The notes below the pieces were generated by a model. It was given only the letters and a program-made list of their open reading frames with translations. It did no database searches and had not been told where the DNA came from. From Acidimicrobiales bacterium (GTDB lineage Bacteria; Actinomycetota; Acidimicrobiia; Acidimicrobiales; CATQHL01), in assembly GCA_965237375.1 (NCBI GenBank), contig CBDEFI010000001.1:448509-512508 (forward strand): a stretch of 64,000 nt of DNA. The letters are read 5' to 3'. Both the position numbers and the translations under genes were made by a program. Shown piece after piece: positions 16,860-63,968 of this stretch (position 1 is its first letter; each line of letters opens with the position of its first letter).

Positions 16860-17015
16860 GACCTCTCCTGACGCCAACGGGACGAAAGCTGTCCGCCGGT
16901 CATCGCATCCGGTCGGTTGTCCCGCCCGGAAAAGATCGGGACCGTCACCGACAAACCTGAGATGACCTCGCTATTCCCAAATCGGCCGTCACTCTACACG
17001 GCACCGGCAATCGCC

Positions 17016-34000: not shown

Positions 34001-34906
34001 CTCGAACTTGAGGGTGTAGGTGTTCGGCAGCCCGTAAGAATTCGAACCCGCTTCAACGAGCGCGGCATATCGACCAGTCTCCTCCATATGCCAGGGACCC
34101 GGGTCGAAAACCCAGTCGCGGGAGGACGTGCCCCACTGAACGAGATCGGTCAGTTCGAACTCGTCGGCACTGCCGTCGCCATCCTCGTGAGCTGTGGTGA
34201 GCATGTACAGCCGGAAGGACACCCCGTAGGACTTCTCCGGCTCTCCCTCGATCCAGATCTTGAAGAGGTCGCCTGCCTGAGCATCGAAGACGAGCCAGTC
34301 CTTGTCACCCTCATAGTCGATCGCTCCGGTGTATTCCGTGGCAACCGCGAGATCGATTTCTGTGGCAGCGGACGGCTCATCCCCATGCTCGTCATCGATT
34401 CGGTTCACCGCGATCATGTACTCGCCGGTCGGATCGTACGTCGCACCCACAATGCGCAGGTAGTACGTCCTTTCTTCGGCGCCGCGCAGCAACGACCAGT
34501 GGGTTCTGAGCGAGTCGGGATCGGCTTCGGTGGCGATCTCTGCTCCGGTGGCGTCGTGGAGCGAGAGTTCGACGGCGACATCCCGGGAACTTCCGCCCAA
34601 CCTGCCGCTGACGATGATCCGGTAGTCCTGGCCTTCGTGGGCCTCGAAGCGGTACCAGTGGATCTCGTACAGATCGGCGAGTTGCGCAACATGCGATTCT
34701 CCGTCGACGACGAGGACCACTGCGTCGGTCGGTGGCCCCTCGGGGGTCGCGGCATCGGAGGTCTCAGCCACCGAACCGTCGTCCAGAACCACCAGAGCGG
34801 ACGACGACTCGGTGCCCGCGCCGCTCACCGCGCACCCGACCGGCAGGACCAGAGCAGCGAGCACGCCGCAGAACGCACGAAGCCCGGGGCGGTCCACTGT
34901 CGGCAT
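31049..34906 (-). CDS. giant secreted lipoprotein made of about ten PPC-like (pre-peptidase C-terminal type) repeat domains
   Basis: ATG 34906 gives MPTVDRPGLRAFCGVLAALVLPVGC|AVSG (lipobox). A recurring module begins (D)DHG/DDY.. and contains DxDW[FL]xFxxxxGxxYxI (DKDWLVF, DEDWFYV, DTDWFQF, DSDWFAF, DSDWFAL, DVDWFVV, DRDVFRL, DSDYFQL ..). No catalytic domain is recognisable. The 334 upstream codons of the track ORF run antisense through the RCC1 gene. Confidence 0.75.
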   Translation of the reverse strand: MPTVDRPGLRAFCGVLAALVLPVGCAVSGAGTESSSALVVLDDGSVAETSDAATPEGPPTDAVVLVVDGESHVAQLADLYEIHWYRFEAHEGQDYRIIVSGRLGGSSRDVAVELSLHDATGAEIATEADPDSLRTHWSLLRGAEERTYYLRIVGATYDPTGEYMIAVNRIDDEHGDEPSAATEIDLAVATEYTGAIDYEGDKDWLVFDAQAGDLFKIWIEGEPEKSYGVSFRLYMLTTAHEDGDGSADEFELTDLVQWGTSSRDWVFDPGPWHMEETGRYAALVEAGSNSYGLPNTYTLKFEILVDDHSNIPVGATLLQPGQERTASLNYTHDEDWFYVDMVQGERYVVDAYALEEDRAFPEVALYSEESQVSYGDWYDLERDELIAPGIGRLVWQARQSGPHLIKVSNRRSEDDRHYPTEYVIAVSRRPADDHSDAPDGATLIRSRDWIQAELDALTDTDWFQFLVTAGTVYNVEFEVLDEDSGNYVPADDYYGGRSLHASFVGDGWKDDARQSLAIAENGVLYLMFSAIRPRILSYRFRLVANEEVDHGDDRATASPIEVAETVRGSVTDQDSDWFAFEAVPELIYSIASGQSGHGFFNITVFDESGDVPALSSGFPYYGQQWASLGSGLWTVPSPGTYWIRISGKWAAPFAYELGYTVTEIVVDDYGDSPGEAAEVTFDPEALPARAAELAEKRARSGVEQGIQQALVEGHVGYFLDSDWFALQLERGVKYRIRPYDQAASYNPPSWDVDATISLWDGDTVLDRWRKWDDSIDYVPTTTGTYHIQVTRGRESPFLEPFAYGFEIAILTADDFSDLRSGASPVSASDVIAGSLNSRNDVDWFVVEATEGQTWLVRSPNERWGCMQIYGPDQDHALREDCWEGHLAWTAAESGEFGIRLSPRIYSYQTYRAPAEYELTLSVAESDDHGNDLAQASVLVPGEAQLGVIDYVDDRDVFRLSVKSGEIWQVGLARSYHGTRYDVQFFEGTEDVRDRVATLAYGQAGFLTTPVDGVWFISVGSPDSSGDYSLTVERLDVQDDYGGSRGQAHLLPTPESPDPVCESETPGEGCPGSTTITGGIDYGGDSDYFQLPLVEGETYEFTVHSASEDSPSLAVLTESGCALLKPGIWEATRTGDYWVLVGRGRRFEGPESYTLEVTQLGDDYVDPWDLATPLEPGQVHEVDDPGGIDRYRVRLDHPFYVIEVDGERGGASDASPDSYSSVYAHDGSRVITELPVDPPTVFDFSVRAWGPYTVVVREYEDSDADLDWIYQTGTPAGPPGYCRPEQ

Positions 34907-35168
34907 GGAACCCACCCCCCTGCAGGCGCAAGAATCGGCCCCGGATCCGGCCGCCCGCATCAACTCCGGATCCGATGCCACCCAGACTGTAACGCCGGCA
35001 CGCTCCGGAGTCCGATTCGCGCGCATGCCGACGCAGCCCGGATCGCCCGGCAGGCAAGGGGTTGACGTGCCAAGGTGGTGCCGCCGCAGAGCCACGGGCG
35101 CTACGGTCGAGTCGAAGCTGGCGGGATCCCGACGAGTGGCGTGACCGGGACGGATAGGGGGATGCGCA

Positions 35169-49628: not shown

Positions 49629-49640
49629 CATATGCATATG
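49629..49640. promoter_or_regulatory. perfect 12-nt palindrome CATATGCATATG overlapping the Fic start codon, inside an ~80-bp AT-rich tract
   Basis: Read directly. The surrounding 49570-49650 (..tgtacatacatctatgcaaagtagatatataagtatagtagcatatgcatatg..) is strikingly AT-rich for this window. Confidence 0.4.
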
Positions 49641-50816
49641 ATCTATACCACACCCGCCGTGAGCGGCCTTGACGAGACCGTCTTGGGCATGATCGATGAA
49701 CTCAGGGCCGAACTGCGGTTCTACCTGCACGAACCGCGACGCTGGAGCGGGTCGCTGCGTCGCGCCGCCTTTGCCGCGGCGGCGCAGGGATCACTGTCCA
49801 TCGAGGGGTACCGCGCGAGTGTGGAGAGCACCGCGGCGGTCATCGACGGCGAGGAGCCTCCCGAGGTGGACACTGCGACCCGTCAGGCCATCGCCGGCTA
49901 TCGCGACGCCATGACATGCGTGCTGCAAATGGCAACGGACTCGCCGGAGATCAACGCCCGGCTCCTGCAGTCGCTGCACTTCATGATGATGCGGCACGAT
50001 CTCAGCAAGAACCCCGGCCAGTGGCGCCCTGGCGCCGTGTGGATCAGCGACAGGAGTGGCCACGTCGTTTACGAAGCTCCCGCCCGCGATCTGCTGGAAC
50101 CCCTCGTGGAAGAGACGTTGACGCATATCGCCGGGAGCGACGCGCCTACTTCGGTGACCGCCGCCATGGCACACCTGAACCTCACGCTCGTACACCCGTT
50201 CAGCGACGGCAACGGACGCATGGCCCGATGCCTGCAGACCTTCGTTCTCGTCGGCGGCGGTCTCGGCTCACCGGCGTTCGTGAGCGTCGAGGAGTACCTG
50301 GGCGCCAACACCGCCGCGTATTACGAAGTCCTCGCCGAGGTGGGCGGCGGCGCATGGTCGCCGCAGAGCAGCGCACGGCCCTGGATCGAGTTCTGCCTTA
50401 CCGCCCACTACCGCCAGACGCTCGCACTGCGGCAACGCATCCGGGAAACCGAAGCGCTGTGGGACAGATGCGAACAACTCGTCGGGCGCCACGGGTTGGC
50501 GAACCGCTGCGTTGGCGGACTCGCCGACGCAGCCCGCGGCTGGACCCTGCGCCGAGCGCTCTACGTGAAGACAACCAAGCTCACCACCGGCGACGAGATC
50601 AGCGACAACACCGCCACGAGCGACCTCGCCGCCATGGTCTCCGCCGGTCTGCTGCGCCCCCTGGGGGAGAGACGCACCCGCACCTACGAAGCCACCGATG
50701 AACTGCGGTCCGTGTGGCAGCGGATCCACCTGCAAGGACCGCCCCCCGAGACGACCGATCCCTACGAACACTCCCGCAGCCGCAGCCAGGGACACCTCTC
50801 GCCGCCTCCCACATGA
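49632..50816 (+). CDS. Fic-family protein (AMPylase-type) with N-terminal inhibitory-helix motif and a C-terminal winged-helix-like tail
   Basis: Fic core motif HPFSDGNGRMAR (HxFx[DE]GNGRxxR). An upstream SLSIEG matches the [ST]xxxE[GN] auto-inhibition motif. Confidence 0.85.
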   Translation: MHMIYTTPAVSGLDETVLGMIDELRAELRFYLHEPRRWSGSLRRAAFAAAAQGSLSIEGYRASVESTAAVIDGEEPPEVDTATRQAIAGYRDAMTCVLQMATDSPEINARLLQSLHFMMMRHDLSKNPGQWRPGAVWISDRSGHVVYEAPARDLLEPLVEETLTHIAGSDAPTSVTAAMAHLNLTLVHPFSDGNGRMARCLQTFVLVGGGLGSPAFVSVEEYLGANTAAYYEVLAEVGGGAWSPQSSARPWIEFCLTAHYRQTLALRQRIRETEALWDRCEQLVGRHGLANRCVGGLADAARGWTLRRALYVKTTKLTTGDEISDNTATSDLAAMVSAGLLRPLGERRTRTYEATDELRSVWQRIHLQGPPPETTDPYEHSRSRSQGHLSPPPT

Positions 50817-50885: not shown

Positions 50886-52358
50886 TTACTCGGCTTCGAG
50901 GCGCAGCAGGGCTGACATGGCGGCCAACGGCCGGATGCCGCCCCAGACGGTTATCAGTCCCCTCATGTACTGTCCGGCGGCCTCCGTGGTGGCAGCCCGT
51001 GCGATGAGGTCGGTCCGCACGTCGTCGGGCAGCCCTCCCTGGTCCAGCGCGTTGTTGAAGGAACCCCACCGGTCAAGGGCGCCCATGTTGGCCAGGCTGC
51101 TCATGACGCGCACAGTTCGCTCGTCGAGCCCGCCGATCTGGCGCAGGAGCCTCAGCGTGTCCTCCTCCAGGCCACCACGATGGACGTGCAGTCTGCGCAG
51201 GGCGCCTAGACGGAACGCCGATTGCGCTGGGTCACTACCGGACAGTTCGCTGGCGGGCACGTGGACCCGGTCGTCGGCGGACAGAACCGTCGGGTCGTCG
51301 GCGGACAATTCGGCAAGAGCCTCCGTGGCGGACAGAGAGGCAAGGCGGTGCAGCGTGTCGGCGTCGAGGCGGCCCAGGAACCACAGTGCACACAGCACGT
51401 TCGCGTCGGGCGGGGCATTCGGGGTCCCGGCTCGCATGGTCAACTCGCTAACAGCGACCAGGTCGGCTTGGGACAAATCGGCCAAGTCGGTGACGGCGTA
51501 CACGCCGAACAGGTCGGGGCTGCGGTGGCTCGTCACGAACGGGTGGCGCAAGATGGCCAGCGTGTCGGCATCCAGGACACCCAGGCGATGCAGGCCGGCA
51601 AGCGTCACGGGGGCCATGGTGCCCATGGCGGCCAGGATGTCCAGGCGGGCCGTGTGGCCCCGCCCGCCCAGGAAGCCCAGCGTGATCAGGTCGACGGCGG
51701 TCAGCGTGGCCAGACGGTCCAGGGTGGCCAGGTCGGCGCCGGTCAGGGCGCCCAGGCGCCGCAGGGACTCTGCGGGGGACGAGCCGAACCTGCCCAGGCC
51801 GGCGGCGGGCAGGACACCCAGGCGCCGCAAGGTGTCTCGTTTGTCGCCGGGCAGGCCGGCCAGCGTCTCGGCGACGCGGGCGCTCAGCTCGTAACCCAGT
51901 TTTGCCCAGCCGCCATCGCGCCCGGCGACCCGCTCGGCCTCCCGGGAAGCCAGCTCAGCGGTCAGGCCGGCCATGTCGATGGCCGTGTCGGCGGACAGGG
52001 CGGTCAGCGCGGCCGGCACGTTGGCGGGCAGGTCGGCCAACTCCGCTGCGGCGCAGTCAGCGAGGGCGGCCAGTTTGTCGGCGGGCAGGTCGGCCAGCGC
52101 CTCGGCCACGTTCGGGTCGGTCAGGACATCGGCGGGCGGGTGGGCCAGGGTGGCGAGATCACCCAAGCGGCCCAGGCTGCCCAGGCGGTCCAGGGCATCC
52201 CGCGTGTCGGCGGCGAACCGGCGCACGTCGGCCCGCAGTCCGGCGGGCAGCATGGCATCCTCCGCGCCCACGTCCGGGCAGCCCGGCACGTCGGCGGGAA
52301 GGACGACCAAGCGCTCCAGAACATCCTCTCCGGGGCGGGGTGGTCGGTAGGCGGTCAC
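50886..52358 (-). CDS. hypothetical protein with degenerate Leu-rich repeats (RLGxL..(A)DLxxL type)
   Basis: GC3-rich ORF. I start it at GTG 52358, just downstream of the AT-rich promoter-like tract. The track ORF (to 53267) would run antisense through the exonuclease gene. Recurrent ..SLRRLGALTGADLATLDRLATLTAVDLITLGFL.., ..LHRLGVLDADTLAILRH.., ..FLGRLDADTLHRLASL... No family recognised. Confidence 0.5.
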   Translation of the reverse strand: MTAYRPPRPGEDVLERLVVLPADVPGCPDVGAEDAMLPAGLRADVRRFAADTRDALDRLGSLGRLGDLATLAHPPADVLTDPNVAEALADLPADKLAALADCAAAELADLPANVPAALTALSADTAIDMAGLTAELASREAERVAGRDGGWAKLGYELSARVAETLAGLPGDKRDTLRRLGVLPAAGLGRFGSSPAESLRRLGALTGADLATLDRLATLTAVDLITLGFLGGRGHTARLDILAAMGTMAPVTLAGLHRLGVLDADTLAILRHPFVTSHRSPDLFGVYAVTDLADLSQADLVAVSELTMRAGTPNAPPDANVLCALWFLGRLDADTLHRLASLSATEALAELSADDPTVLSADDRVHVPASELSGSDPAQSAFRLGALRRLHVHRGGLEEDTLRLLRQIGGLDERTVRVMSSLANMGALDRWGSFNNALDQGGLPDDVRTDLIARAATTEAAGQYMRGLITVWGGIRPLAAMSALLRLEAE

Positions 52359-52391
52359 GCCCAGGACTGTATCGGCTCGCCAGAACAATAT

Positions 52392-52439
52392 ATCCCAATA
52401 TATTACAAGTATGTAGAGCACGTTTAGATGATTGTGCTC
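52392..52439. promoter_or_regulatory. AT-rich divergent promoter-like tract with two inverted repeats
   Basis: Contains AATATAT-CCCA-ATATATT and GAGCAC(52416-52421)-N12-GTGCTC(52434-52439). Lies between the repeat-protein gene (-) and the exonuclease gene (+). Confidence 0.35.
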
Positions 52440-52682
52440 CGACCATCCGCTCCGGTGCCGCGGCAACGAGCGCCCGACGTCGGTGAGCCATCGGTTGGGA
52501 TTCCTCCCCCAGCATCCGGACACCACAATCAGGCCTCGACCGACAGGTTTGCAATTCAAATTATCAGGTCGTAGTTTGCTGCCGTACCCGGCGCCTCGAC
52601 ACCGGCCCCGGCGGGGACCGACGCCACCGCGGACAAGCATCAACCAGCGATACGACAAGCGATCGATCGGAAGGGAGAGGCC

Positions 52683-53285
52683 ATGCCCCAACATGGCGCC
52701 AGGCCACTTCGAGTCGTTATTGACTGCGAAACAACCGGGTTCAGTAGAAGCGACCGAATCATCGAGATTGCTATGACCACTCTTGACCGCGACGGTAGGA
52801 CCGTCGAAGAATTCGACACGCTCGTCGACCCACAACGTGACACCGGACCAGTCCATATCCACGGCGTGACTACGTACATGGTCGAGACCGCCCCGACGTT
52901 CGCCGAGATTGCGAGTGCTGTCGCCGGCCGGGTCCATGGAGCGGTACTCGTCGCCCACAACCTTGCCTTCGACACCAGGATGCTCACCCAGGAGTTCAAC
53001 AGGGTCAGTATCAACTTCCACCCCGGCAACGGGATCTGCACGCAGAAACTCACACGACAGAAGCTCAAAGTGGCCTGCCACGCGCTTGGAATCGAATACA
53101 TCGATCAACATGCGGCGCTTGCCGACGCCCGTGCCACCGCTGAGGTGCTCCAACACGTCGCCCCCCACTGGAGCGGCACCCCAGCCAAGGCCGGACCCTT
53201 CGACACCGAAGCCGGCCACCCACCGACGCTGAGCCGGCACACGGTGCAGAAGCGGCGCACCGTCCATTCCGAAAGAACGTGGTGA
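52683..53285 (+). CDS. stand-alone DEDDh 3'-5' exonuclease (DnaQ/epsilon-like)
   Basis: Exo I VVIDCETTGF, Exo II LVAHNLAFD, Exo III HAALADARATAEVL. SD GGAAGGGAGAGG precedes the ATG. Confidence 0.8.
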   Translation: MPQHGARPLRVVIDCETTGFSRSDRIIEIAMTTLDRDGRTVEEFDTLVDPQRDTGPVHIHGVTTYMVETAPTFAEIASAVAGRVHGAVLVAHNLAFDTRMLTQEFNRVSINFHPGNGICTQKLTRQKLKVACHALGIEYIDQHAALADARATAEVLQHVAPHWSGTPAKAGPFDTEAGHPPTLSRHTVQKRRTVHSERTW

Positions 53286-53349: not shown

Positions 53350-55020
53350 CTAGGAGCCCGGCACCACCACGGGGACGATCATGGGTCGGCGCTGGGAGCG
53401 GCTCGCCACCAGGGAACCCGCCGTGCGGCGCACCACCCGGCGCACCTCGGCCGGCTCGGGAGCCGATTCGGTTCGCAGGAACTCCCCGACCGCCTCGGCA
53501 AGCGCCTCCTCTATCTCGGCCTCCAGAGGGTCGGCGTCGGATTCGTCCAGCCAGCCCCGGCTGGTGACCCGCGGCTCGCCCACCACGACACCGGAATCGA
53601 AGTCCACCACCACGACGGCAACCACTGCCCCTCGGTCGCCGAGGATGAGCCGCTCGCCGAGCACCCCCCGGTCCGGCCCGGTGAACGGCCCGTGGACCAA
53701 GATGTGGTCGCCGGCACTTACGCCGGCGACGACCTGCAGGCCGTCGTCGGTGAGCACGACCTGATCGCCGTCACGGGCCAGCAGCACCCGGTCATCGGGC
53801 ATGCCCAGCCGCCGCGCAAGGGCGGCGTGCGCCCGCAGGTGGCGCAGTTCACCGTGCACCGGCACGAACCACTCGGGTGAGGCCGCCTGGTGCAGCGCCG
53901 CCAGCTCGTCCTGGCGCCCGTGACCCGAGGTGTGGATCTCGATCTCGCCGGAGTGCACCACCTTGGCGCCCCGCTCGATCAGGTCGTTGATCATGCGGCT
54001 GACGCGGGCCTCGTTGCCGGGGATGGGGTTGGAACTCAGCACGACGGTGTCGTCGGAGCCGATGTCGATCCAGCGGCTGTCGCCGGCGGCGGCGGTCGCC
54101 AGCGACGAACGCTCCTCGGCCTGCGACCCCGTAGAGATGACACACAACTCCCCCGGTTCCATACCGGCGGCGTCGGCGATGTCCACGACGGCGCCGTCGG
54201 GCAGCTTCAGCAGGCCCAACTCCCGGCCCAGGGCCACGTTCTTCTTCATCGACAACCCGAGCGTGGCCACCTTGCGCCCGCACGCCAGCGCCGCGGCGAC
54301 GATCTGCTGCACCCGGTGCAGGTGGCTGGCGAAGCACGCCGTCACGATGCGCCGCCCCGCGTGCGCAGCGAACACGTTGGCCAGCACGGGGCCGATCTCG
54401 CTCTCGGAGCGGGAACTGCCCGGCTGCTCGGAGTTGGTGGAGTCGGCCAGCAGCAGCCTGATGCCCGGATCCTGGGAGATCGCACCGATGCGGGCCAAGT
54501 CGGTGCGGCGGCCGTCCACCGGGAAGAAGTCCAGCTTGAAGTCGCAGGAGTGCAGCAGCACCCCCTGCGGCGTGCCGATGGCGGTGATGACGCCGCCGGG
54601 CACAGAGTGCGTCACGGGGACGAACTCGCAGTCGAAGGGGCCGATGCGCACCCGTTCGCCGTCGCCCACGGGGATCAGCCGGGCGCGGTCGGCGTAGCCG
54701 GACTCGGTGATCCGGCGGCGGGCAATCCCGAGCGTGAACGGCGTGCCGTAGATGTCGCACCGCACCTCGGTGAGCAGATGGCCGAGCGCCCCGACGTGGT
54801 CCTCGTGGCCGTGCGTGGTGATGCACCCCACGACCTTGTCGGCCCGCTCGAAGACGTAGGAGAGGTCGGGCAGGACAGAATCCGCGCCGGGACGGATGTC
54901 GTCGGCGAACATCTGCCCGCAGTCCAGCAGGAGCAGCGCATCGCCGGTTTCGATGGCTGCGCAGTTACGTCCGATGTCGCCGAGGCCGCCGAGGAAGGTG
55001 ACCCGGACGTCGTCAGCCAA
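53350..55020 (-). CDS. rnj: ribonuclease J
   Basis: VRVTFLGGLGDIGRNCAAIE..LLLDCG, TTHGHEDHVGAL (MBL + beta-CASP). TTG 55020 overlaps the dapA stop. The dapA-rnj order matches that in mycobacteria. The track ORF extends to 55257 inside dapA. Confidence 0.85.
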   Translation of the reverse strand: MADDVRVTFLGGLGDIGRNCAAIETGDALLLLDCGQMFADDIRPGADSVLPDLSYVFERADKVVGCITTHGHEDHVGALGHLLTEVRCDIYGTPFTLGIARRRITESGYADRARLIPVGDGERVRIGPFDCEFVPVTHSVPGGVITAIGTPQGVLLHSCDFKLDFFPVDGRRTDLARIGAISQDPGIRLLLADSTNSEQPGSSRSESEIGPVLANVFAAHAGRRIVTACFASHLHRVQQIVAAALACGRKVATLGLSMKKNVALGRELGLLKLPDGAVVDIADAAGMEPGELCVISTGSQAEERSSLATAAAGDSRWIDIGSDDTVVLSSNPIPGNEARVSRMINDLIERGAKVVHSGEIEIHTSGHGRQDELAALHQAASPEWFVPVHGELRHLRAHAALARRLGMPDDRVLLARDGDQVVLTDDGLQVVAGVSAGDHILVHGPFTGPDRGVLGERLILGDRGAVVAVVVVDFDSGVVVGEPRVTSRGWLDESDADPLEAEIEEALAEAVGEFLRTESAPEPAEVRRVVRRTAGSLVASRSQRRPMIVPVVVPGS

Positions 55021-55936
55021 AACCGAGTTCCCGACCCAGCCGGGTAGTGGCCAGCACGGCTCGAGCGTCGTCCGCGAGGTCCTCCGGCACGGCGTCCATG
55101 GGCGGGCGGCACGGTCCGGCCGGGCGGCCCAGCAACCGCAGGAGCGCCTTGGTGGGGATGGGGTTGGGGGCCTCCAGCCCGCTCTCATAGTCGAACGACG
55201 GCCCCAACGCGGCGTTGAGCGCCCGGGCGGCGGCGATGTCGCCCCGCTGCCAGGCATCGAAGAGGGCCACGTGCTCGGCGGCCGTCCAGTGGGTGGCCAC
55301 GCCGATCACACCCACCGCCCCGACCGCCAGCAGCGGCAGGGTCAGCCCGTCGTCGCCGCTGTAGACCTCGAAGCCGTCGGGCGCTTCGGCGATGAGCCGA
55401 CCCGTCTCGGCAGGATCGCCGGCGGCGTCCTTGATGCCGGCGATGTTGTCGACGGCGTGCGCCAGCGCCAGCAGCGTGGCGGTGTCCACCTTGCGGCCGG
55501 TGCGCACCGGAATGTCGTAGATGACCACCGGCAGGTGGGTGGCGGCGGCGACGGCCCGGAAGTGGCCCACGAGGCCGGCCTGCGGGGGACGGTTGTAGTA
55601 GGGGGTGACGGACAGGATGCCGTGCGCGCCGACGGCGGTGGCCTTCTCGGTGAGTTCCACGGCGGCGGCGGTGTCGTTGCTGCCCGCCCCGGCCAGGACC
55701 GGCACATCGACGGCGGCCACGACAGCGGCAATGAGGTCGATCTGCTCGGCGTGGCTGAGCGTGGGGGACTCGCCCGTGGTACCCGCCACGACGAGGCCCT
55801 CGTTGCCACAGTCCACCAGCCAGCGAGCCAGATCGGCGGCACCGGCGAGGTCGAGCGCACCGTCGTCGGTGAACGGTGTCACCATGGCGGTGACCACGCG
55901 ACCGAAGCGGGGCCTCGCGGCGCCGGCAGTTGACAT
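55013..55936 (-). CDS. dapA: 4-hydroxy-tetrahydrodipicolinate synthase
   Basis: FGRVVTAMVTPFTDDGALDL..GLVVAGTTGESPTLS..VLAGAGSNDT..ILSVTPYYN are DapA signatures. ATG 55936 chosen. Confidence 0.9.
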   Translation of the reverse strand: MSTAGAARPRFGRVVTAMVTPFTDDGALDLAGAADLARWLVDCGNEGLVVAGTTGESPTLSHAEQIDLIAAVVAAVDVPVLAGAGSNDTAAAVELTEKATAVGAHGILSVTPYYNRPPQAGLVGHFRAVAAATHLPVVIYDIPVRTGRKVDTATLLALAHAVDNIAGIKDAAGDPAETGRLIAEAPDGFEVYSGDDGLTLPLLAVGAVGVIGVATHWTAAEHVALFDAWQRGDIAAARALNAALGPSFDYESGLEAPNPIPTKALLRLLGRPAGPCRPPMDAVPEDLADDARAVLATTRLGRELGFG

Positions 55937-56089
55937 GACGGCGAGGCTACCGCTCCGGGCCGCCACCGTGTCCCATCCCGCGTGCTCGGCAACACCGCAG
56001 GATCGTCCGGGTGCGCATGTCGCCCCGACGGGAGCCCGGATTCAAGGTCCGACGGCCTCAGCGGCCTTGGACTTGCCGTCCACCGGCGT

Positions 56090-56875: not shown

Positions 56876-56987
56876 GACCGCCAGTATGCCCGGCCACCCC
56901 ACCGGAGCCCGATCTGCTGCGCAGCAGGTTCCTCGCTAACCTGCCTGCTCGACTCAATGCCCCTTCCTGTCAGGAGCATCTTCCCCC

Positions 56988-59900
56988 ATGTCCTCTGCCC
57001 GCAGCCCGGATCCGTCCCCACAAACCGCCGGCGACGATAGTGCGCCACCGATTCCGGCCTTCGTCGTCATTGACATCGAGACCTCCGGGCTGGACTTCGA
57101 CGCCGACAACTTCCGGATATTGGAAGTGGCAGCGTGTCGGGTGGAGCCGGGACAGCCCGTGAGCACGTTCCAGACACTTGTCCGTGAGGACGCCCAACTG
57201 CTGACGGAGCGTCTCCCCGGAGTGACCGACGACGAAGTCCGATCCGCGGTCGGGGAGGCGGAGGCCCTAGCCATACTGGCCTCGTTCTGCGGCCTTCTGC
57301 CGGTAGTGGCGCACAACGGCACGGGGTACGACTTTCCGATCCTCGGCGCCGCCCTCAAGCGCCACAGCGCTCCCCCGATCGTGGGACAGCAACTCGACAG
57401 TCTGGAGTTGGCACTGCTGGTAGCTCCCCGCTCGGGAAGGCGTGTTCCACCGAACATCGACGGTGCCAAGCCACCGGAGAGCCTCTCTTTGGACAGTCTG
57501 TGCGGCTGGCTGGCAGTGGCACCGCCAGAACCTCGCCACCGCGCTCTGCCCGACGCCGCGGCCACCGCAAGAGTCGTAGTGAAGATGCTGGCGCTTCTGA
57601 ACCAAGATCGGCCTGAGCACAACGCCCAGCGCTTCCTGCTGCACCGCGGCCATCACCCCTGGGCGGCCTTCCTGACAGCATCCGACCGACTGTCCCCGCT
57701 GGAAGAACTGGTGCCAGCGCCGCCCGATGGCGCGTCACCGACCAGCGCTCCTACCTCCTTCTCGGTGGATGCAGCGGTGTCACCGCTGTCGCCCGGTGGA
57801 ATGCTCGTGCGCGCACCGGACCGGAGCCACCGACCCCAGCAGGAGCAGATGGCGCGGTACGTGGCCGGGGCACTCGCCGGAGGACGCACGGCGCTCATCG
57901 AGGCTCCGACGGGGACCGGCAAGACCCTCGGCTACCTGGTTCCCGCAGTGGCCTTCGCTCGCTGCAACCCAGAGGCCAGAGTAGGCGTCAGCATGCACAC
58001 CAAGATCCTGCAGGACCAGGTCATGGTCACCCTCATGGAGTTGAAGGACACGCTCGGACCGTTGAGGTGGACGGTGCTGAAAGGGGCCAGCAACTATCTG
58101 TCACTACCCGACCTAGCCGACGAGATGGACGATCCCCCGTCAACGCCAGAGGGATCGTGGGCTTTGGCCGCCGTCGTGGGGTGGGCGGCACAGACGCCGA
58201 CGGGTGAGTGGGACGACCTGCAAGATTGGCTGCTTCGAGAGCGGTCCGCGGGCTTCCCGGCTCTGCGCTGGCGTATCTCCTGCGAAGGAACCCGCGCGGC
58301 TCCGACAGCGCTGGATCAGAAGTGCTTCCACCACCGAGCCGTCATGGCTTTGAACAGCGCCGATATTGCAGTGCTGAATCACGCCGTGCTGTTGAGTCGG
58401 GCGAGCGTCGCAAACGAACTCACGCACCTCGTCTGCGACGAGGCGCACAATCTGGAAGAGAGCGCCACGAGCGCGCTCACCGAAGAAGTGTCCGAAGCCT
58501 CGCTGGAACGACTCCTCGACGTTATCGGGGCCACCCCTAGAAGGGGACTATTGCGGCGCTACCGGGACTACCACCGTCGCGCTGATGATAGCGACTTAGC
58601 AGCGATCGCCGAAAGCGTACACCTCGTCACGGACTGTACCGAGGCCTGCCGCCTGCACACGGGCAGTTTCGGCAGCTTGCTGGTGGAGTATGCCCGCAGC
58701 CGGGCCGAGACACGCACCGGCCAACTTGAGCGGTATGGCGTGCAGTATCGGCTGCGACCCGGCTTCGACACCGGTCGTGGCGACTACCGGCCCGTGCGCC
58801 GCGCAGCCGAATCGCTAGCAGGTTCTCTGGAGGCCATCGCCAACAATCTGGACAGACTCCACCTACCGACGGACTGCAACCCCACCGGCCGTCGTAGGCG
58901 CCTCAACCTTGAAGCCCAGATCGTCCGAGCCAGCAGGGAGGCCCGTCGAGCGGCGACCTGCTTGCGGTCCGGCGTCGGTACGCACGACGACGACCGGTGG
59001 ATCAGCGTGGCCGCGCTGGAGATGCGCGACGACGCGATCAGCTGGGCACTGCGTCGCCTGCCAATCGACGTCTCAGAGAAGCTGCAGACGCTCTGGGGAA
59101 ACATGCGGGCAGTCGTCTGTACGTCCGCCACACTGCGCGTCGCTGGGACATTCACCCACATGATCGAACGCCTCGGGCTCACCGCCGAGTTGACCGAGAA
59201 GCTCGACTCTCCGTTCGCGGACCTCGCCCGGAACCAACTCGTCGTGCTGCTCGGACACCTACCCCTACCGCGGGGCATGCTGCTGGAGGAGTTCGGCGAG
59301 GCCACAACCGGAGAGTTGGCCCGCTTGTTCACCCTTTCCTCCGGTGGCGCGATGGCCCTGTTCACCGCTCGCGACCGGATGCTGCGCTCCCGCGACCATC
59401 TGAAACCGCTGCTGGCGAAGAACGACATGGAATTGTTGTGCCAGGGTGACCAGGCCGCAACGAAGCTCGTGGAACGCATGCGCACCGACGAGGGATCCTG
59501 CCTGCTGGGCACCCGGTCCTTTTGGGAGGGCGTGGACATCCCGGGTGATGCGCTGCGACTGCTCGCCATCGAGAAGCTGCCCTTTCCCAACTTCTCCGAT
59601 CCTCTGGTGGCGGCTCGCACGGAAGAACTCCAGCGGCGCGGCAAGGATCCCTTCCAGCACTATGTGGTCCCCCAAGCGGTGCTCGCTTTCGCGCAGGGCG
59701 CCGGGAGGCTCATCCGGACCGAAGACGACCGAGGTGCCCTCGTCCTTCTCGACAAGCGTCTGCGCATGCCCCTGTCGTACAGCAGCGCGTTTCTGGACGC
59801 ACTCCCCGACGGGACCGAACCGCGGCGGCCTAACACCGCTGAGGAGGCCTACGAAGCGATCGCCGAGCACTTGGGATTGGCGTGGGGCAGCGGGATCGCC

Positions 59901-62048
59901 GAAACGCTCGCCGCTCTTCCCTCAGCCGGAACCTCCAAGGACTTCACCGACCTGGCGATCCGCGCCGATCAGCGCCGCGACCGGACGCTCATCCGACAAC
60001 GCCTCGAACAAGTCCGGGAGCGCATGGACATCGGCGCGTGGCGACTCGGCCAGCAGGAGTTGATAGAACAACTCCTCGGCGACGAACGAGCAGACGTGCT
60101 GGCGGTGCTGCCCACCGGTAGCGGTAAGTCACTCATCTACCAGATCCCCGGACTGCTGCTGCCAGGTATCACCCTCGTCACGTCGCCGCTCCTGGCCCTG
60201 ATGCGCGATCAGATCGACGGGCTGCGCCAGCGCGGCTACCACCAAGTTGCCGCCATCCACACTGGACAGTCGCAGACGGAGCAGAACGAAGTCCTCACCG
60301 GTGTCCGCGAAGGCCGCTACAAGCTGTTGTACGTCTCGCCGGAACGCCTCTGGACGACCCGCTTTCGAGAGGCGATGGAGGGCGTGGCCATCGACTTGGT
60401 GGTGGTCGACGAGGCCCACTGCGTGTCGCTGTGGGGGCACAGCTTCCGACCTGAGTACCTCCAGATCACCCGGGCCATCACGGAGATGTGCGATGCGCGG
60501 GCAGAGATCGGACGACCCGTCCTCGCCGCTCTGACGGGAACCGCCACACCCCAAACGCAGGCCGACATCATCGAACAACTCCGGCTGCGGCTGCCGGACG
60601 GTGCCGTTGCCCACAACCCCGACCGCCCGGAGTTGCGCTTCTACGTGCAGGAGTGCAAGTCGTTCGAAGACAGGAAGCTGCAGGTACTGGCAATCCTCGG
60701 CGCCTTCCGGAACAAGCCCGCCATCGTCTACGTCCCGCGCCGACGTGACACGATGCACCTATCGGCCCTGCTGCGGGCCGACAATCACGTCTGCCTCCCC
60801 TACCACGGAGGCATGGAACAGCCCCAGCGCACCCATACCGAGGAGGCATTCCGCCACGGCGAGGTGGACGTGATCGTGGGAACCAACGCCTTCGGCCTGG
60901 GCATCGACAAACCCGATGTCGAGTTGGTCGTCCACCTGGAGATGCCCCAAACCATCGAGGACTATGTCCAAGAAACCGGCCGTGCGGCGCGCGGAACGAC
61001 CGACGGACGGGGCCCCGAGATCGGCACCTGCATCCTGCTGCGCACGCCTCGTGACTGCGGCATACACAACTTCTTCGGGAAGAACGCCGTCCCGAGTTTC
61101 GAGACGGTCCGCTCCGTCTGGCAGCGCCTGAGCGGTCGCAGCCTGATCCCGCTCGGCGAACTCTCCCGGAGCGCTGACGAGAACGAGCGGGAACATACCG
61201 GATTGGCCGTGCAGTACCTCGTCGTACACGGTGCTGCGCAACGCCGGCCCGACGTGACTTGGCGCTGCACGGTAAACGTACCCCAGGACTGGAGAGGGCG
61301 ACTGGCACGGGCCAACCGACTCGACGATGCCGAGCGAGCCTTGCTGAATACGGCCGTCGAGTCGTGGAGGCGCTTCGGCGGGGAGCCGTTCAACCTCGTC
61401 GAGGAATGCGAGAGGCGGGCCTGGGAGCCCGCCGACACCGAACGGCTGCTCCTCAAGGCCGACCGCTGCGAGATCATCACGTTCCGCACCATCGAACCGG
61501 CCTTGGACATCGTGTGTGCATCCGAACATGAACCCGACTGGGAGGCGATTCAGGAAGCCCTGGACGAGCAAGGCCGACGGATCGGGGACCGAATCCGCCG
61601 CGCCCGGGAGTTCGCCCGCAGTGACGAGACCTGTCGGCGCGCACGGATGCTCAGCTATCTCGGCGTGGACGCACCTCCCTGCTGTGAGGGCTGCGACGTG
61701 TGCGTGCCCGACATGCCGCGTCCGTGGGCAGGGCACGAGTTCACCCCGGAGCAACTCGAACATGCCATCCCGGCGCGAGAGGTCGTCCGCGTGCTGCTCA
61801 GTGACGTAGCGGGAGCCAAGTATTCCCGTGCCAACATCCTCCGTACGCTGAGCGACACCGGCGGGCCGTACGAGTTGCCCGCCGAGTTGAAGTCCCACCA
61901 TCTCCGGGGCGCCTTGGCGCACCTGAGCGACAACCGCATCGAGGAGACGATTGCGCAGATGGTGGCCGATGGCATGGTCGAGGAGTTTCAGACGACCAGG
62001 CACCCCGACGAAGGCTCCGGCCCTTACAGTGCTCTGCGGTTGCGGTAG
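56988..62048 (+). CDS. 1,686-aa fusion protein: DnaQ-like exonuclease + DinG/XPD-like helicase + RecQ-like helicase
   Basis: Exonuclease motifs: FVVIDIETSGLD, VAHNGTGYDFPIL, HRALPDAAATARVV. DinG motifs: LIEAPTGTGKTLGYLVP, LVCDEAHNLEE. RecQ motifs: LAVLPTGSGKSLIYQIP, VVVDEAHCVSLWGHSFRPEY, LTGTATP, and the Zn cluster CRRARMLSYLG..CCEGCDVC. Confidence 0.8.
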   Translation: MSSARSPDPSPQTAGDDSAPPIPAFVVIDIETSGLDFDADNFRILEVAACRVEPGQPVSTFQTLVREDAQLLTERLPGVTDDEVRSAVGEAEALAILASFCGLLPVVAHNGTGYDFPILGAALKRHSAPPIVGQQLDSLELALLVAPRSGRRVPPNIDGAKPPESLSLDSLCGWLAVAPPEPRHRALPDAAATARVVVKMLALLNQDRPEHNAQRFLLHRGHHPWAAFLTASDRLSPLEELVPAPPDGASPTSAPTSFSVDAAVSPLSPGGMLVRAPDRSHRPQQEQMARYVAGALAGGRTALIEAPTGTGKTLGYLVPAVAFARCNPEARVGVSMHTKILQDQVMVTLMELKDTLGPLRWTVLKGASNYLSLPDLADEMDDPPSTPEGSWALAAVVGWAAQTPTGEWDDLQDWLLRERSAGFPALRWRISCEGTRAAPTALDQKCFHHRAVMALNSADIAVLNHAVLLSRASVANELTHLVCDEAHNLEESATSALTEEVSEASLERLLDVIGATPRRGLLRRYRDYHRRADDSDLAAIAESVHLVTDCTEACRLHTGSFGSLLVEYARSRAETRTGQLERYGVQYRLRPGFDTGRGDYRPVRRAAESLAGSLEAIANNLDRLHLPTDCNPTGRRRRLNLEAQIVRASREARRAATCLRSGVGTHDDDRWISVAALEMRDDAISWALRRLPIDVSEKLQTLWGNMRAVVCTSATLRVAGTFTHMIERLGLTAELTEKLDSPFADLARNQLVVLLGHLPLPRGMLLEEFGEATTGELARLFTLSSGGAMALFTARDRMLRSRDHLKPLLAKNDMELLCQGDQAATKLVERMRTDEGSCLLGTRSFWEGVDIPGDALRLLAIEKLPFPNFSDPLVAARTEELQRRGKDPFQHYVVPQAVLAFAQGAGRLIRTEDDRGALVLLDKRLRMPLSYSSAFLDALPDGTEPRRPNTAEEAYEAIAEHLGLAWGSGIAETLAALPSAGTSKDFTDLAIRADQRRDRTLIRQRLEQVRERMDIGAWRLGQQELIEQLLGDERADVLAVLPTGSGKSLIYQIPGLLLPGITLVTSPLLALMRDQIDGLRQRGYHQVAAIHTGQSQTEQNEVLTGVREGRYKLLYVSPERLWTTRFREAMEGVAIDLVVVDEAHCVSLWGHSFRPEYLQITRAITEMCDARAEIGRPVLAALTGTATPQTQADIIEQLRLRLPDGAVAHNPDRPELRFYVQECKSFEDRKLQVLAILGAFRNKPAIVYVPRRRDTMHLSALLRADNHVCLPYHGGMEQPQRTHTEEAFRHGEVDVIVGTNAFGLGIDKPDVELVVHLEMPQTIEDYVQETGRAARGTTDGRGPEIGTCILLRTPRDCGIHNFFGKNAVPSFETVRSVWQRLSGRSLIPLGELSRSADENEREHTGLAVQYLVVHGAAQRRPDVTWRCTVNVPQDWRGRLARANRLDDAERALLNTAVESWRRFGGEPFNLVEECERRAWEPADTERLLLKADRCEIITFRTIEPALDIVCASEHEPDWEAIQEALDEQGRRIGDRIRRAREFARSDETCRRARMLSYLGVDAPPCCEGCDVCVPDMPRPWAGHEFTPEQLEHAIPAREVVRVLLSDVAGAKYSRANILRTLSDTGGPYELPAELKSHHLRGALAHLSDNRIEETIAQMVADGMVEEFQTTRHPDEGSGPYSALRLR

Positions 62049-62075
62049 CGGACACGCTGCAATGAAGGACACGAC

Positions 62076-63968
62076 ATGGCGTTCCTGATACCAGAGAACC
62101 TGGCGTCACGAAGCGACGTGCCAGAGCGCTTCCGAATTGTGGCGGCAGCGTTGCGCGAGCAACTCCCCGACGACGTGACCGTCTGGCTGGAACACTTCTC
62201 CCTCGATGCGCAGCTCGCGCCGCCGAGGTCATTACGAGGCCAGGGCGAATCCTCCGTACCCTTCCTGGCGATTGTCCTGCCACGTCACGGTCTGCTCTGG
62301 CTCGATGTACTCGCCGGAGGATCGAGAGCTCTCGAACAACAGCGGGGGCGTCGAACCAAGGGCAACCCGGTGCCGGCAGCCATCGGACGGCTGGAGGAAC
62401 ACAGCCGTCCGGTCTTCGGCCGACTAGCCGAATCGGGCGACTCCCGAACAAGGGGCATTCCTGTGCTCACGGCATGTGCCGCCCCAATGGTGCCAGCCCG
62501 CGCCGCACCACCTGGCAGCGACCGGAAGCGAGTGCTTTTCGCGGATGACATCGTAGGCCTCGAAGATGCGATCGCCGGCCTCTTCGAGCGCGCTCGGCGG
62601 GAGAGCACCCCGTTGACGAGCAATGAGCAAGACGTTCTGCGCGCCGCGCTACATCCGGAGTGCGTGATACGCGACGACAGGACGCGTCAAGAGCAGGGAC
62701 GGCTCGCGCTACGCCAGCGCAACTCTCCCGACGATGAGCAGACCATCAAGCTTCTCGACCGTGAGCAGGAACGCTTGGCCAAGGACCTCGGCAGTGGATA
62801 TCGAGTCATCAAGGGGGTTGCCGGTAGTGGCAAGACCCTTGTCCTGGTGTTCCGCGCCAAGTTCGTACGATCGGACTTGCGCGTCCTGCTCACCTGTTTC
62901 AATCGAGTACTCGCCGACCAACTCGAGAATCAACTGAGCAACCGGACGAACGTCACGGTTCGGAACATCGACCGTCTCCCTTACGAGTTGGATCGCCGCG
63001 CCCATGACCGAGGGATTCCGTTCTCACTTTCGAAGGATGGCACTGACTTTGACCTTCGTATCACAGAATCCCTCGATCTGTTGACAAGACACCCTGAACT
63101 GGGACTGTTCGACATCGTGCTGGTGGACGAGGCGCAGGACTTCGACCCGCAGCGCTTGGAGTTCGCCTACCGGCTCCTCAAGCCGGAAAAGACTGATTTC
63201 GTAGTGGCACGCGACGCCGCCCAGAACGTATACCGGCGTCCGGACTGGATTCCCCCGGAGACATCCGGGAGGGGCCGCACGAAGATCCTGAAGCGCAACT
63301 ACCGCAACACACGAGAGATCCTCTACCTGGCATGGGAAGTTCTCCGCGCCGGCGATCAAAGCAGCGTTCAGGGCGATCCCGAGATCGACGACGTGATCAT
63401 CGAACCCGAGGCCGCACTGCGCCGCGGCCCGCTACCCGAGACTCTCTCCGTGCGCGAGGAGGACGAACAGCGTGAGGTGTCCAATCGCATTCAGCGCGCC
63501 GCCGATGAGGGTGCCCGGTGGGACGACATCGCCGTCCTGTGCGGTAACCGCAAGACACAGAGGCGGTACGCCGACGAACTAGAGCGACGCTCCATCCCCC
63601 ACCTGAACACCGCCGACACCCGAGAACGCAACAGGGTGGCCAGCACAAGGAACCATGTGCTGATCGCATCTTTGCGACATCTCAAGGGTCTGGAGTTCCC
63701 GTACGTTTTTCTTGGCGGGATCTCGGAGATTGCTGTGGGCGGGGAGGAGGCCGACGACGTCACGGAACGTCGCGCCCTCTACGTAGCAATGACTCGCGCC
63801 ACTCGCCATCTGACGGTCGTGCTGAGCGGCGACAGCGCCTACGCAGACGATATCCAACGGTGGATCCACCGCTGGCGGCACGACCAATCCAATTATGATC
63901 TGATCGATCCCTCCGAGGACAAGCCCGGTCAACCGCCCGTCACCAGCCACACGACCGACCGCACCTAG
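62076..63968 (+). CDS. SF1 (UvrD/PcrA-like) helicase with a NERD/PD-(D/E)xK-like but apparently degenerate N-terminal domain
   Basis: Motifs IKGVAGSGKTLVLVF, IVLVDEAQDF, KRNYRNTREIL, LKGLEFPYVFL and LYVAMTRATRHLTVV. Starts 27 nt after the fusion-helicase stop. Confidence 0.75.
   Translation: MAFLIPENLASRSDVPERFRIVAAALREQLPDDVTVWLEHFSLDAQLAPPRSLRGQGESSVPFLAIVLPRHGLLWLDVLAGGSRALEQQRGRRTKGNPVPAAIGRLEEHSRPVFGRLAESGDSRTRGIPVLTACAAPMVPARAAPPGSDRKRVLFADDIVGLEDAIAGLFERARRESTPLTSNEQDVLRAALHPECVIRDDRTRQEQGRLALRQRNSPDDEQTIKLLDREQERLAKDLGSGYRVIKGVAGSGKTLVLVFRAKFVRSDLRVLLTCFNRVLADQLENQLSNRTNVTVRNIDRLPYELDRRAHDRGIPFSLSKDGTDFDLRITESLDLLTRHPELGLFDIVLVDEAQDFDPQRLEFAYRLLKPEKTDFVVARDAAQNVYRRPDWIPPETSGRGRTKILKRNYRNTREILYLAWEVLRAGDQSSVQGDPEIDDVIIEPEAALRRGPLPETLSVREEDEQREVSNRIQRAADEGARWDDIAVLCGNRKTQRRYADELERRSIPHLNTADTRERNRVASTRNHVLIASLRHLKGLEFPYVFLGGISEIAVGGEEADDVTERRALYVAMTRATRHLTVVLSGDSAYADDIQRWIHRWRHDQSNYDLIDPSEDKPGQPPVTSHTTDRT

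Follow-up and report, generated by a model that had tools for sequence, protein, structure and literature searches.

A two-gene module in an Acidimicrobiales genome: an exonuclease-DinG-RecQ fusion protein and an SF1 helicase with a degenerate NERD-like head

A 64,000-nucleotide stretch of the genome of an Acidimicrobiales bacterium (GenBank assembly GCA_965237375.1, contig CBDEFI010000001.1, positions 448,509 to 512,508), referred to below as the window, carries close to its end a module of two genes on the plus strand. The first (56988-62048) is an open reading frame (ORF) of 1,686 amino acids (aa) that is confirmed to encode an uninterrupted fusion of a DEDDh exonuclease, a DinG-type helicase and a RecQ-type helicase. 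The second (62076-63968) encodes a 630-aa superfamily 1 (SF1) helicase whose N-terminal head is, as judged by profile comparison, an inactivated NERD domain. We are confident that the two genes constitute a real, conserved and accessory unit, and its behaviour across genomes is best explained by a self-contained operon that is exchanged horizontally. What the unit does is a more delicate question. The role we favour over DNA repair is that of surveying the cell for foreign or aberrant DNA and degrading it, in an accessory system directed against plasmids or phages and executed by a helicase-nuclease with two motors of opposite polarity; the case for and against this role is evenly balanced.

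The three-part architecture of the large protein has been on record since a comparative analysis of Thermus thermophilus HB27 (Omelchenko et al. 2005, PMC1274311). The preliminary description of the window, made from sequence alone, had not recognised a chain of this kind, and to that extent overstated its novelty; the fusion is moreover common in the Acidimicrobiia. A literature search for a characterised DinG-RecQ fusion or a defence system named after one returned just this 2005 comparative-genomics note, and no description of the partner pairings was found. What appears to be undescribed is thus the obligate SF1 partner with its inactivated NERD head, the other classes of partner and the wide extent of the family.

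The exonuclease-DinG-RecQ fusion protein

All three parts of the fusion are identified by Pfam and NCBIfam models and retain intact catalytic motifs, which bears out the three-enzyme reading in the preliminary description; every motif string quoted there is present in the translations. The DEDDh 3'-5' exonuclease occupies aa 26-196 (57063-57575, plus strand) and matches Pfam RNase_T with 38.6 bits against a cut-off of 24, as well as the PADLOC DEDDh profile at 1e-20. It possesses the residues of the Exo I D-x-E, Exo II D and Exo III H-x4-D motifs: in an alignment of 18 homologues, to which all statements on conservation within the fusion refer, D29 and E31 are at least 90% conserved and D115, H184 and D189 are invariant.

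The middle part (aa ~279-949, 57822-59834, plus strand) is a DinG/XPD-like helicase of superfamily 2 (SF2) with Pfam matches to ResIII (aa 282-352) and Helicase_C_2 (aa 778-941, 137.9 bits), and it covers positions 15-566 of the 575 positions of the PADLOC typeIV_DinG profile at E = 1e-103. The Walker A motif EAPTGTGKT, the DEAH box (aa 484-487) and the QGxGRLIR motif (aa 903-910) are invariant. No set of four cysteines suited to an iron-sulphur (Fe-S) cluster is conserved between motifs Ia and II, so this part is predicted to be of the cluster-free type; Pfam likewise returned no DEAD_2 match. The Exo-DinG subgroup of the Firmicutes also lacks the cluster. By NCBIfam the middle part groups with DinG, YoaA and the 'DnaQ exonuclease/DinG helicase' model, and the nearest structures are E. 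coli DinG (6fwr) and 8zef, an 897-aa protein deposited as '3'-5' exonuclease DinG'. The equivalog cut-offs of the Exo-DinG models are missed (NF005981, 409 against 789; TIGR01407, dinG_rel, 351 against 547.7), and by this measure the Exo-DinG portion is a relative and not an ortholog-level member of these equivalogs.

The C-terminal part begins with a RecQ-family helicase core (aa ~1004-1345, 59997-61022, plus strand) composed of Pfam DEAD (aa 1021-1189) and Helicase_C (aa 1239-1335). It passes the subfamily model TIGR00614 (recQ_fam) with 281.1 bits against a cut-off of 219.8, contains the RecQ-specific motif 0 (W1018, R1019, Q1022) and matches E. coli RecQ (1oyw) at E = 3e-67; the motifs PTGSGKS, DEAHC and QETGRAARG are invariant and the arginine finger is conserved. 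Here too the equivalog cut-offs are missed (TIGR01389, 345 against 640, with a match that ends at aa 1370; PRK11057, 286 against 1015). The zinc-binding motif (aa 1527-1572, 61566-61703, plus strand) scores at threshold level with RecQ_Zn_bind (26 bits against a cut-off of 25), and its cysteines C1549, C1566, C1569 and C1572 are invariant. Core and zinc motif are separated by an insertion of ~155-200 aa that canonical RecQ proteins do not have. The remaining tail of ~114 aa (61704-62045, plus strand) has conserved leucines (L1621, L1634, L1643); no Pfam family matched aa 1573-1686 at a whole-protein E of 0.01 or below, and no Pfam match to HRDC or to the RQC winged helix was found in the fusion.

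A chain of this kind could in principle have arisen by a frameshift or mis-join of neighbouring dinG and recQ genes, or could represent a decaying pseudogene. Such an artefact is ruled out with virtual certainty by an independent metagenome contig in the European Nucleotide Archive (ENA), which shares 99.84% identity with 16.5 kb of the window, places its 25 mismatches and single gap elsewhere and shows no difference across the 6,981-bp module; no evidence was found for the frameshift or assembly join whose possibility the preliminary description had raised. There are no internal stops in either ORF (56988-62048 and 62076-63968). A search of 5.8 billion proteins yielded 420 relatives, and all 120 of those listed (40-59% identity) carry both the RecQ-type DEAD/Helicase_C pair and Helicase_C_2, most of them RNase_T as well. 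Nearly all of the listed proteins are about full length (1,629-1,818 aa, with one of 1,451 aa). Also against an artefact, more than 120 full-length homologues conserve the residues at the junction, including RecQ motif 0, the catalytic motifs are intact, and the fusion is present in the finished genome of T. thermophilus HB27, where it has been in print since 2005.

The SF1 partner and the two-gene unit

The second gene begins 27 nucleotides (nt) downstream of the first. The spacer (62049-62075, plus strand) holds a Shine-Dalgarno sequence, GAAGGA, 6-7 nt 5' of the second ATG, and no terminator was found between the genes in a scan of the operon, from which we infer that fusion and partner are co-transcribed. 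The protein was correctly anticipated to be a UvrD-like SF1 helicase: it matches Pfam UvrD_C (59.8 bits), UvrD_C_2, AAA_19, AAA_30 and UvrD-helicase, and the ATPase/helicase core (aa ~225-595, 62748-63860, plus strand) matches the PADLOC profile C3a187, 'NERD+UvrD', at E = 2.7e-47. SF1 motifs I, II, III, IV and VI are conserved: across 60 homologues the residues of the Walker A motif GVAGSGK(T), the DE-QD residues of motif II and the Y-TR residues of motif VI are invariant, and those of NYRNT are mostly invariant or at least 90% conserved. The AlphaFold model of the protein (pLDDT 85.6, pTM 0.87) retrieves SLFN11, UvrD, PcrA and Rep as top Foldseek matches, the latter three at E ~1e-15.

The head (aa 1-205, 62076-62690, plus strand) is far more elusive. 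No Pfam family was detected on it in 20 members, and NERD (PF08378) was absent even at E = 1. The model of the isolated head (pLDDT 81) found nothing significant in the PDB by Foldseek (best E = 0.38), and the sub-threshold matches to SLFN14, VC1899, NucS/EndoMS and BstEII (E = 0.4-1.3) are suggestive only. When a profile of the head (A4) was compared with 1.84 billion cluster representatives, just 153 proteins were recovered, nearly all of them with the same head and SF1 architecture. Among the remote matches with other architectures, 7 of 10 carry a genuine Pfam NERD domain precisely in the aligned region, and hhalign joins the head to one such NERD protein with a probability of 95.8% (E = 7e-9). 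In this alignment the catalytic 'PDL...EVK' of NERD faces 'P(Y/F)L...(D/E/H)-x-(L/V/P)' in the partner family: the aspartate is replaced by Y or F and the lysine by L, V or P, and the position of the glutamate is variable (D, E or H). The window protein reads PFLAIVLPRHGLLWLDVL in this region. The head is, on the strength of the profile search and the hhalign alignment, a divergent NERD domain without the catalytic aspartate and lysine, much as had been surmised by eye.

The two genes travel together. The distribution was scanned with one genome per GTDB species, followed by tblastn of both proteins on the fetched loci. Wherever the fusion is at least 38% identical to that of the window, it is immediately followed by the partner gene in the same orientation, without exception, in more than 37 loci. 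These belong to the Armatimonadota and to the Acidimicrobiia, the latter with numerous genera of sponge symbionts (Poriferisodalis and Spongiisocius, for example). Clustering of the ORFs over 37 loci showed that fusion and partner alone recur in all of them; the next genuine neighbour family, a generic SDR, is found in 15. The pairwise identities of the two proteins are closely correlated (r = 0.94), in keeping with co-evolution. The module had been thought possibly to continue past the end of the window. It does not: the next genes lie on the opposite strand, and the two genes are all that is conserved among relatives.

The family as a whole occurs in Acidimicrobiia, Armatimonadota, Chloroflexota, Mycobacteriales, Micromonosporales, Planctomycetota and Deinococcota, and is abundant in sponge-symbiont Acidimicrobiia. 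This patchy distribution over several phyla supports horizontal spread, for which the preliminary description had seen a hint in codon usage. The Armatimonadota copy nests within the acidimicrobial diversity; it differs from the copies of sponge-symbiont Acidimicrobiia no more than those differ from each other, which points to a transfer between phyla. The complete genome OZ241858.1 (Candidatus Spongiisocius sp.) harbours two full modules at distant positions (L016, L036) that are mutually just 49% and 45% identical. They fall into separate subclades, and each has nearer relatives in other genomes than in its companion. A stand-alone Exo-DinG (L045, L046, L051, L067) is encoded by some Acidimicrobiia; it shares ~39% identity with aa 9-965 of the fusion and has no RecQ part within 8 kb. 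It may be the unfused ancestor or a paralogue, and its presence in other genomes of the class argues against the fusion being simply the DinG of the Acidimicrobiia. No phage-borne fusion was found, the phage matches being partial and RecQ-like or DinG-like alone.

Alternative partners, genomic surroundings and proposed role

Beyond the close relatives of the window module lie more distant triple fusions (28-34% identity) from Chloroflexota, Mycobacterium, Mycolicibacterium, Gordonia, Micromonospora, Planosporangium, Singulisphaera, Deinococcus and Fervidibacter. None of them has a NERD-SF1 gene directly downstream by tblastn, and three other kinds of neighbour take that place. In seven actinomycete loci of the Mycobacteriales and Micromonosporales (Mycobacterium, Mycolicibacterium, Micromonospora and Planosporangium; L054:12947-19378, also L052, L059, L061, L062, L064 and L078) the next gene overlaps the stop codon of the fusion and encodes a protein of 1,666-2,624 aa, mostly ~2,150 aa. 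The one scanned, that of L054, has an N-terminal SNF2 helicase in its first ~600 aa followed by ~1,500 aa without a recognisable family, and its best PADLOC matches are BrxH, DrmD and HmaA. In the Chloroflexota loci and in Singulisphaera (Planctomycetota) a Sacsin/HATPase protein of 1,735-2,375 aa is encoded directly 3' of the fusion (L047:11863-18708, L056:13177-18381, also L041, L042, L048, L058 and L066); the scanned Chloroflexota protein (L047) contains TPR repeats in addition. PADLOC TmtA, the Tiamat protein, is matched by these giants at 2e-158 and 8e-107. By definition Tiamat consists of one gene and includes no helicase; it has been validated experimentally, and to our knowledge the mechanism of its protein has not been worked out. 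The fusion and the TmtA-like gene could represent a two-gene Tiamat variant.

The third kind is found on the megaplasmids of the Thermaceae, whose chromosomes were not searched. There three small conserved proteins of ~260-280, 180 and 510 aa are encoded after the fusion; they are homologous between Thermus and Meiothermus (L086:16804-19702, L089:14153-16984, L090:14002-16879). The last of them is annotated as 'BglG antiterminator', and no Pfam or PADLOC match was found for any of the three. Two of these proteins also follow the fusion on a contig from an uncultured bacterium. In T. thermophilus HB27 the operon resides on megaplasmid pTT27 between the type I-C cas3/cas5/cas8c and the type III-B cmr genes, and in Meiothermus taiwanensis it is ~1.7 kb away from repA-parAB of the plasmid and adjoins a PIN-like toxin-antitoxin pair. 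A broader, uncharacterised family in which a constant Exo-DinG-RecQ core is combined with interchangeable partner genes is the best explanation of these arrangements.

In the window, the module is preceded by an intergenic region (56903-56987, plus strand) that separates it from the divergent SURF1 gene on the minus strand and places an AGGAG sequence 11 nt 5' of the fusion's ATG; a promoter scan upstream of the operon found no sigma-70-like consensus. The overall GC content drops from ~0.70 to 0.62-0.67, and third codon positions reach a GC content (GC3) of 0.79 in the fusion and 0.73 in the partner, compared with a median of 0.87 and a 5th percentile of 0.72 among 34 window ORFs of at least 150 aa, a reference set picked crudely by the GC3-GC2 bias of the ORFs themselves. 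The less GC3-saturated codons noted by eye in the preliminary description are thus genuine, and the lowering is modest in both genes. Another low GC3 value (0.75) belongs to a 1,619-aa ORF on the minus strand (31049-35908) whose sole Pfam match is a weak pre-peptidase C-terminal (PPC) domain, and which may be another foreign or a secreted giant protein.

Upstream of the module and on the opposite strand are SURF1, dapA and the RNase J gene rnj. A Fic gene is located 6 kb upstream (49632-50816, full length), and a Fic fragment and an HTH_3 gene follow beyond the window end on the strand opposite to the module. On the sister ENA contig (L001) the Fic fragment, of 96 aa, and the HTH_3 regulator occupy 16978-17268 and 17634-18128, downstream of the module. 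These genes bracketing the region may be remnants of Fic/Doc-type toxin-antitoxin loci. RNase J is a single 635-aa ORF in the window (53350-55257) and appears as genes of 299 aa and 257 aa on the sister contig (L001:6364-8033); the sole gap between the two sequences probably sits here, and the split is likely an assembly error in a contig of low coverage, the figure 2.13x in its name presumably being that coverage. Further upstream, a 793-aa ORF on the minus strand (50886-53267) without a Pfam match overlaps a 200-aa RNase_T/Rv2179c-like exonuclease ORF on the plus strand (52683-53285). It is probably over-extended, since on the sister contig the genes called are one of 500 aa on the minus strand and the 200-aa exonuclease. 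The dapA gene adjoins the module both in the window (55013-55966) and in the metagenome-assembled genome (MAG) from the Armatimonadota (L005:7523-8410), where ~17 kb between dapA and ftsK hold a UDG gene, a Cas_GSU0053-like gene of 100 aa, the module, RmuC and transporters. This shared adjacency could mark an insertion hotspot or be a coincidence.

The mechanism we propose is that of a single-chain bipolar helicase-nuclease. RecQ helicases unwind DNA with 3'-5' polarity. Judging from family membership, the DinG module would move 5'-3' along one strand and RecQ would travel 3'-5' along the opposite strand, and both motors would drive the enzyme the same way along the duplex, much like RecB and RecD in RecBCD. 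The N-terminal exonuclease would trim the released 3'-ended strand. The partner would bind to the fusion as a sensor of DNA ends or DNA structures, as its loader or as its regulator; any of these is more likely than a second nuclease because the SF1 ATPase has been kept and the catalysis of the NERD head lost. The N-terminus of the partner, MAFLIPEN, varies hardly at all and may serve as the interface. If the two motors are truly opposite and cooperate, the fusion would provide a compact single-chain answer to a task that RecBCD, AddAB and AdnAB perform with several subunits, and a model for the coupling of motors.

Such a machine could police mobile DNA, and several lines of evidence lead us to favour this role: the swapping of partners, including a Tiamat homologue, the location between CRISPR-Cas loci on a megaplasmid, dispensability, variability between strains and the presence of paralogues in one genome. 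Fusion genes of the distant group are adjacent to, or overlap with, genes for TmtA-like or SNF2 (BrxH/DrmD/HmaA-like) proteins. The fusion gene is present in T. thermophilus HB27 and absent from HB8 (PMC1274311), and the pTT27 recQ gene has been classified as 'Highly Permissive' in transposon sequencing (Tn-seq) and as a shell gene in a 2026 study (PMC13140390). Scattered near related loci are genes for PIN, PemK, PhdYeFM, TacA, AbiEii, McrBC, Uma2 and integrases, and Fic near the window copy.

A number of observations weigh against a defence function. PADLOC profiles, compared with individual proteins, point to no complete known system in the window. The matches to DpdF, PsyrT, typeIV_DinG and GajB amount to generic RecQ, DinG or UvrD similarity, and of the gene sets that define Gabija (GajA), Dpd, PsyrTA (PsyrA), Tiamat (TmtA) and type IV CRISPR-Cas (Csf) PADLOC matched single helicase components only. 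Among 150 flanking genes from 19 related loci (four genes on each side, 147 different Pfam families), most are metabolic or housekeeping genes such as SDR, luciferase-like, cysS, ABC and MFS genes; DNA_methylase, Fic and PIN occur just twice each, and no enrichment of defence genes in these flanks is evident. The location of the module is variable, yet there is no obvious defence island in the Acidimicrobiia, and the mostly metabolic neighbours weaken any argument from such islands; the window copy itself adjoins dapA, rnj and SURF1. The characterised relatives (the DinG proteins of Staphylococcus aureus and Bacillus subtilis, and RecQ) are repair enzymes, and no experimental record was found for members of the family. 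The pair is present in many species representatives of the Acidimicrobiia and syntenic between close relatives (L002, L003), which would also fit a repair function that has long been inherited vertically. The preliminary description had considered clusters of this kind typical of anti-phage or anti-plasmid systems; with no complete PADLOC system and mainly metabolic flanks, the anti-phage reading is an inference.

These points lend substance to the main rival explanation, an accessory machine for DNA repair or fork processing that belongs to the lineage-specific repair equipment and has no part in immunity. According to this explanation the Exo-DinG portion would remove obstacles such as crosslinks or R-loops, RecQ would process gaps and forks for RecFOR-type recombination, and the SF1 partner, like UvrD and PcrA, would strip DNA of proteins such as RecA or RNA polymerase. 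S. aureus DinG requires both its 3'-5' exonuclease and its 5'-3' helicase for crosslink repair and resistance to crosslinking agents (PMC12345164), B. subtilis DinG mitigates replication stress (PMC12525004), and in work on Thermus the pTT27 gene is taken for the recQ of the strain, paired with recJ (PMC13140390, PMC11143384). The Armatimonadota copy, flanked by UDG and RmuC, the housekeeping and metabolic flanks in the Acidimicrobiia and the retention of the pair in many of their species point the same way. A repair function sits less well with a patchy occurrence across phyla, the difference between HB27 and HB8, the tolerance of the Thermus gene to insertions, two divergent copies in one genome and a GC3 below that of the neighbours. 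It also offers little account of a partner swapped for a TmtA-like or giant SNF2 protein, of the Thermus copy between CRISPR-Cas loci, or of stand-alone Exo-DinG proteins in other Acidimicrobiia. We regard repair as a serious but less likely alternative and rank defence above it. An outcome that the preliminary description would have counted against its proposal, namely a widespread, syntenic core feature of the clade with housekeeping neighbours, is borne out in part: the pair is widespread and has such neighbours, but its flanks are not syntenic, and it is therefore not a fixed core-genome locus.

The Thermaceae copies raise a different prospect, that the operon is a component of mobile elements or megaplasmids and serves their own replication, maintenance or competition. 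The megaplasmid location of the Thermaceae copies, in a search confined to megaplasmids, the proximity of repA-parAB and a PIN-like toxin-antitoxin pair in M. taiwanensis, an integrase ~10 kb upstream in locus L088 and the Fic and HTH genes around the window copy would agree with this. Most copies, though, belong to chromosomes several megabases long, and the 8-10 kb around them include no genes for integrases, transposases, conjugation or replication; the fusion was not found in phages, and a conserved unit of only two genes leaves no element backbone, all of which makes this prospect improbable.

Returning to defence against mobile DNA, a bolder version can be formulated. Exo-DinG-RecQ may be the shared effector core of an unrecognised, multi-type family directed against mobile elements, and would then be the first bipolar helicase-exonuclease known to reside on a single polypeptide, an SF2 analogue of RecBCD that is licensed by its partner as a sensor. 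The types would be set by the partner: the inactivated-NERD SF1 protein, the giant SNF2 protein, the Tiamat-like TmtA or the Thermus three-gene set. This version is tentative, and we consider it a serious possibility that falls short of being probable. Partner swapping does suggest a modular effector-plus-sensor family outside the current defence catalogues, and a fusion with at least four different partners, one of them homologous to Tiamat, provides a concrete handle on Tiamat-like systems. The occurrence of the fusion in the genetically tractable T. thermophilus HB27 and in mycobacterial isolates makes these hypotheses directly testable.

Comparison with known systems

The closest documented counterpart is the Thermus HB27 fusion, a 1,649-aa protein with the same three parts in the same order that is homologous to the window protein over most of its length (~31% identity) and, like the named relatives of the latter, bears the NCBI label 'RecQ family ATP-dependent DNA helicase'. 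It differs in being followed by three small hypothetical proteins instead of a NERD-SF1 helicase and in being plasmid-borne between CRISPR-Cas loci, and its characterisation consists solely of its dispensability in Tn-seq. The Firmicute Exo-DinG proteins (S. aureus, B. subtilis) share with the window protein an N-terminal DEDDh exonuclease joined to a DinG helicase free of an Fe-S cluster; the N-terminal 950 aa of the window protein align to NF005981 and TIGR01407, and its Helicase_C_2 region to 8zef. Unlike them, the window protein lies below the equivalog cut-offs, adds a complete C-terminal RecQ helicase and has an obligate SF1 partner gene. E. coli RecQ (1oyw) in turn has the two RecA-like domains, motif 0, DEAHC, the arginine finger and the four zinc cysteines that are seen in the window protein, whereas the latter departs from bacterial RecQ proteins by the ~155-200 aa insertion before the zinc motif, by the lack of a detected HRDC or recognisable winged helix, by a score below the equivalog cut-off and by being embedded in a chain of 1,686 aa.

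RecBCD, AddAB and AdnAB are proposed as functional analogues that unite two motors of opposite polarity and a nuclease in one particle. Their motors are SF1 enzymes on separate subunits and their nucleases belong to the PD-(D/E)xK type, whereas both motors of the fusion are SF2 enzymes on one chain with a DEDDh exonuclease, and there is no homology beyond the P-loop fold. Among the defence systems, NERD-UvrD (PADLOC C3a187) resembles the partner in the order of NERD and SF1 parts and in the match of the core, while the partner head is catalytically degenerate and does not align with the NERD part of C3a187. Gabija (GajA-GajB) follows a comparable logic of a nuclease-bearing protein and a UvrD-like ATPase, and the partner weakly matches GajB and Nhi; the window has no OLD-family GajA, and its nuclease is of the DEDDh type and carried by a double helicase. 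Tiamat, listed as a defence system in later defence surveys (PMC12629846) as it is in PADLOC, has no TmtA-like gene in the window, and is connected to the fusion family through the TmtA-like giants that directly follow its distant members.

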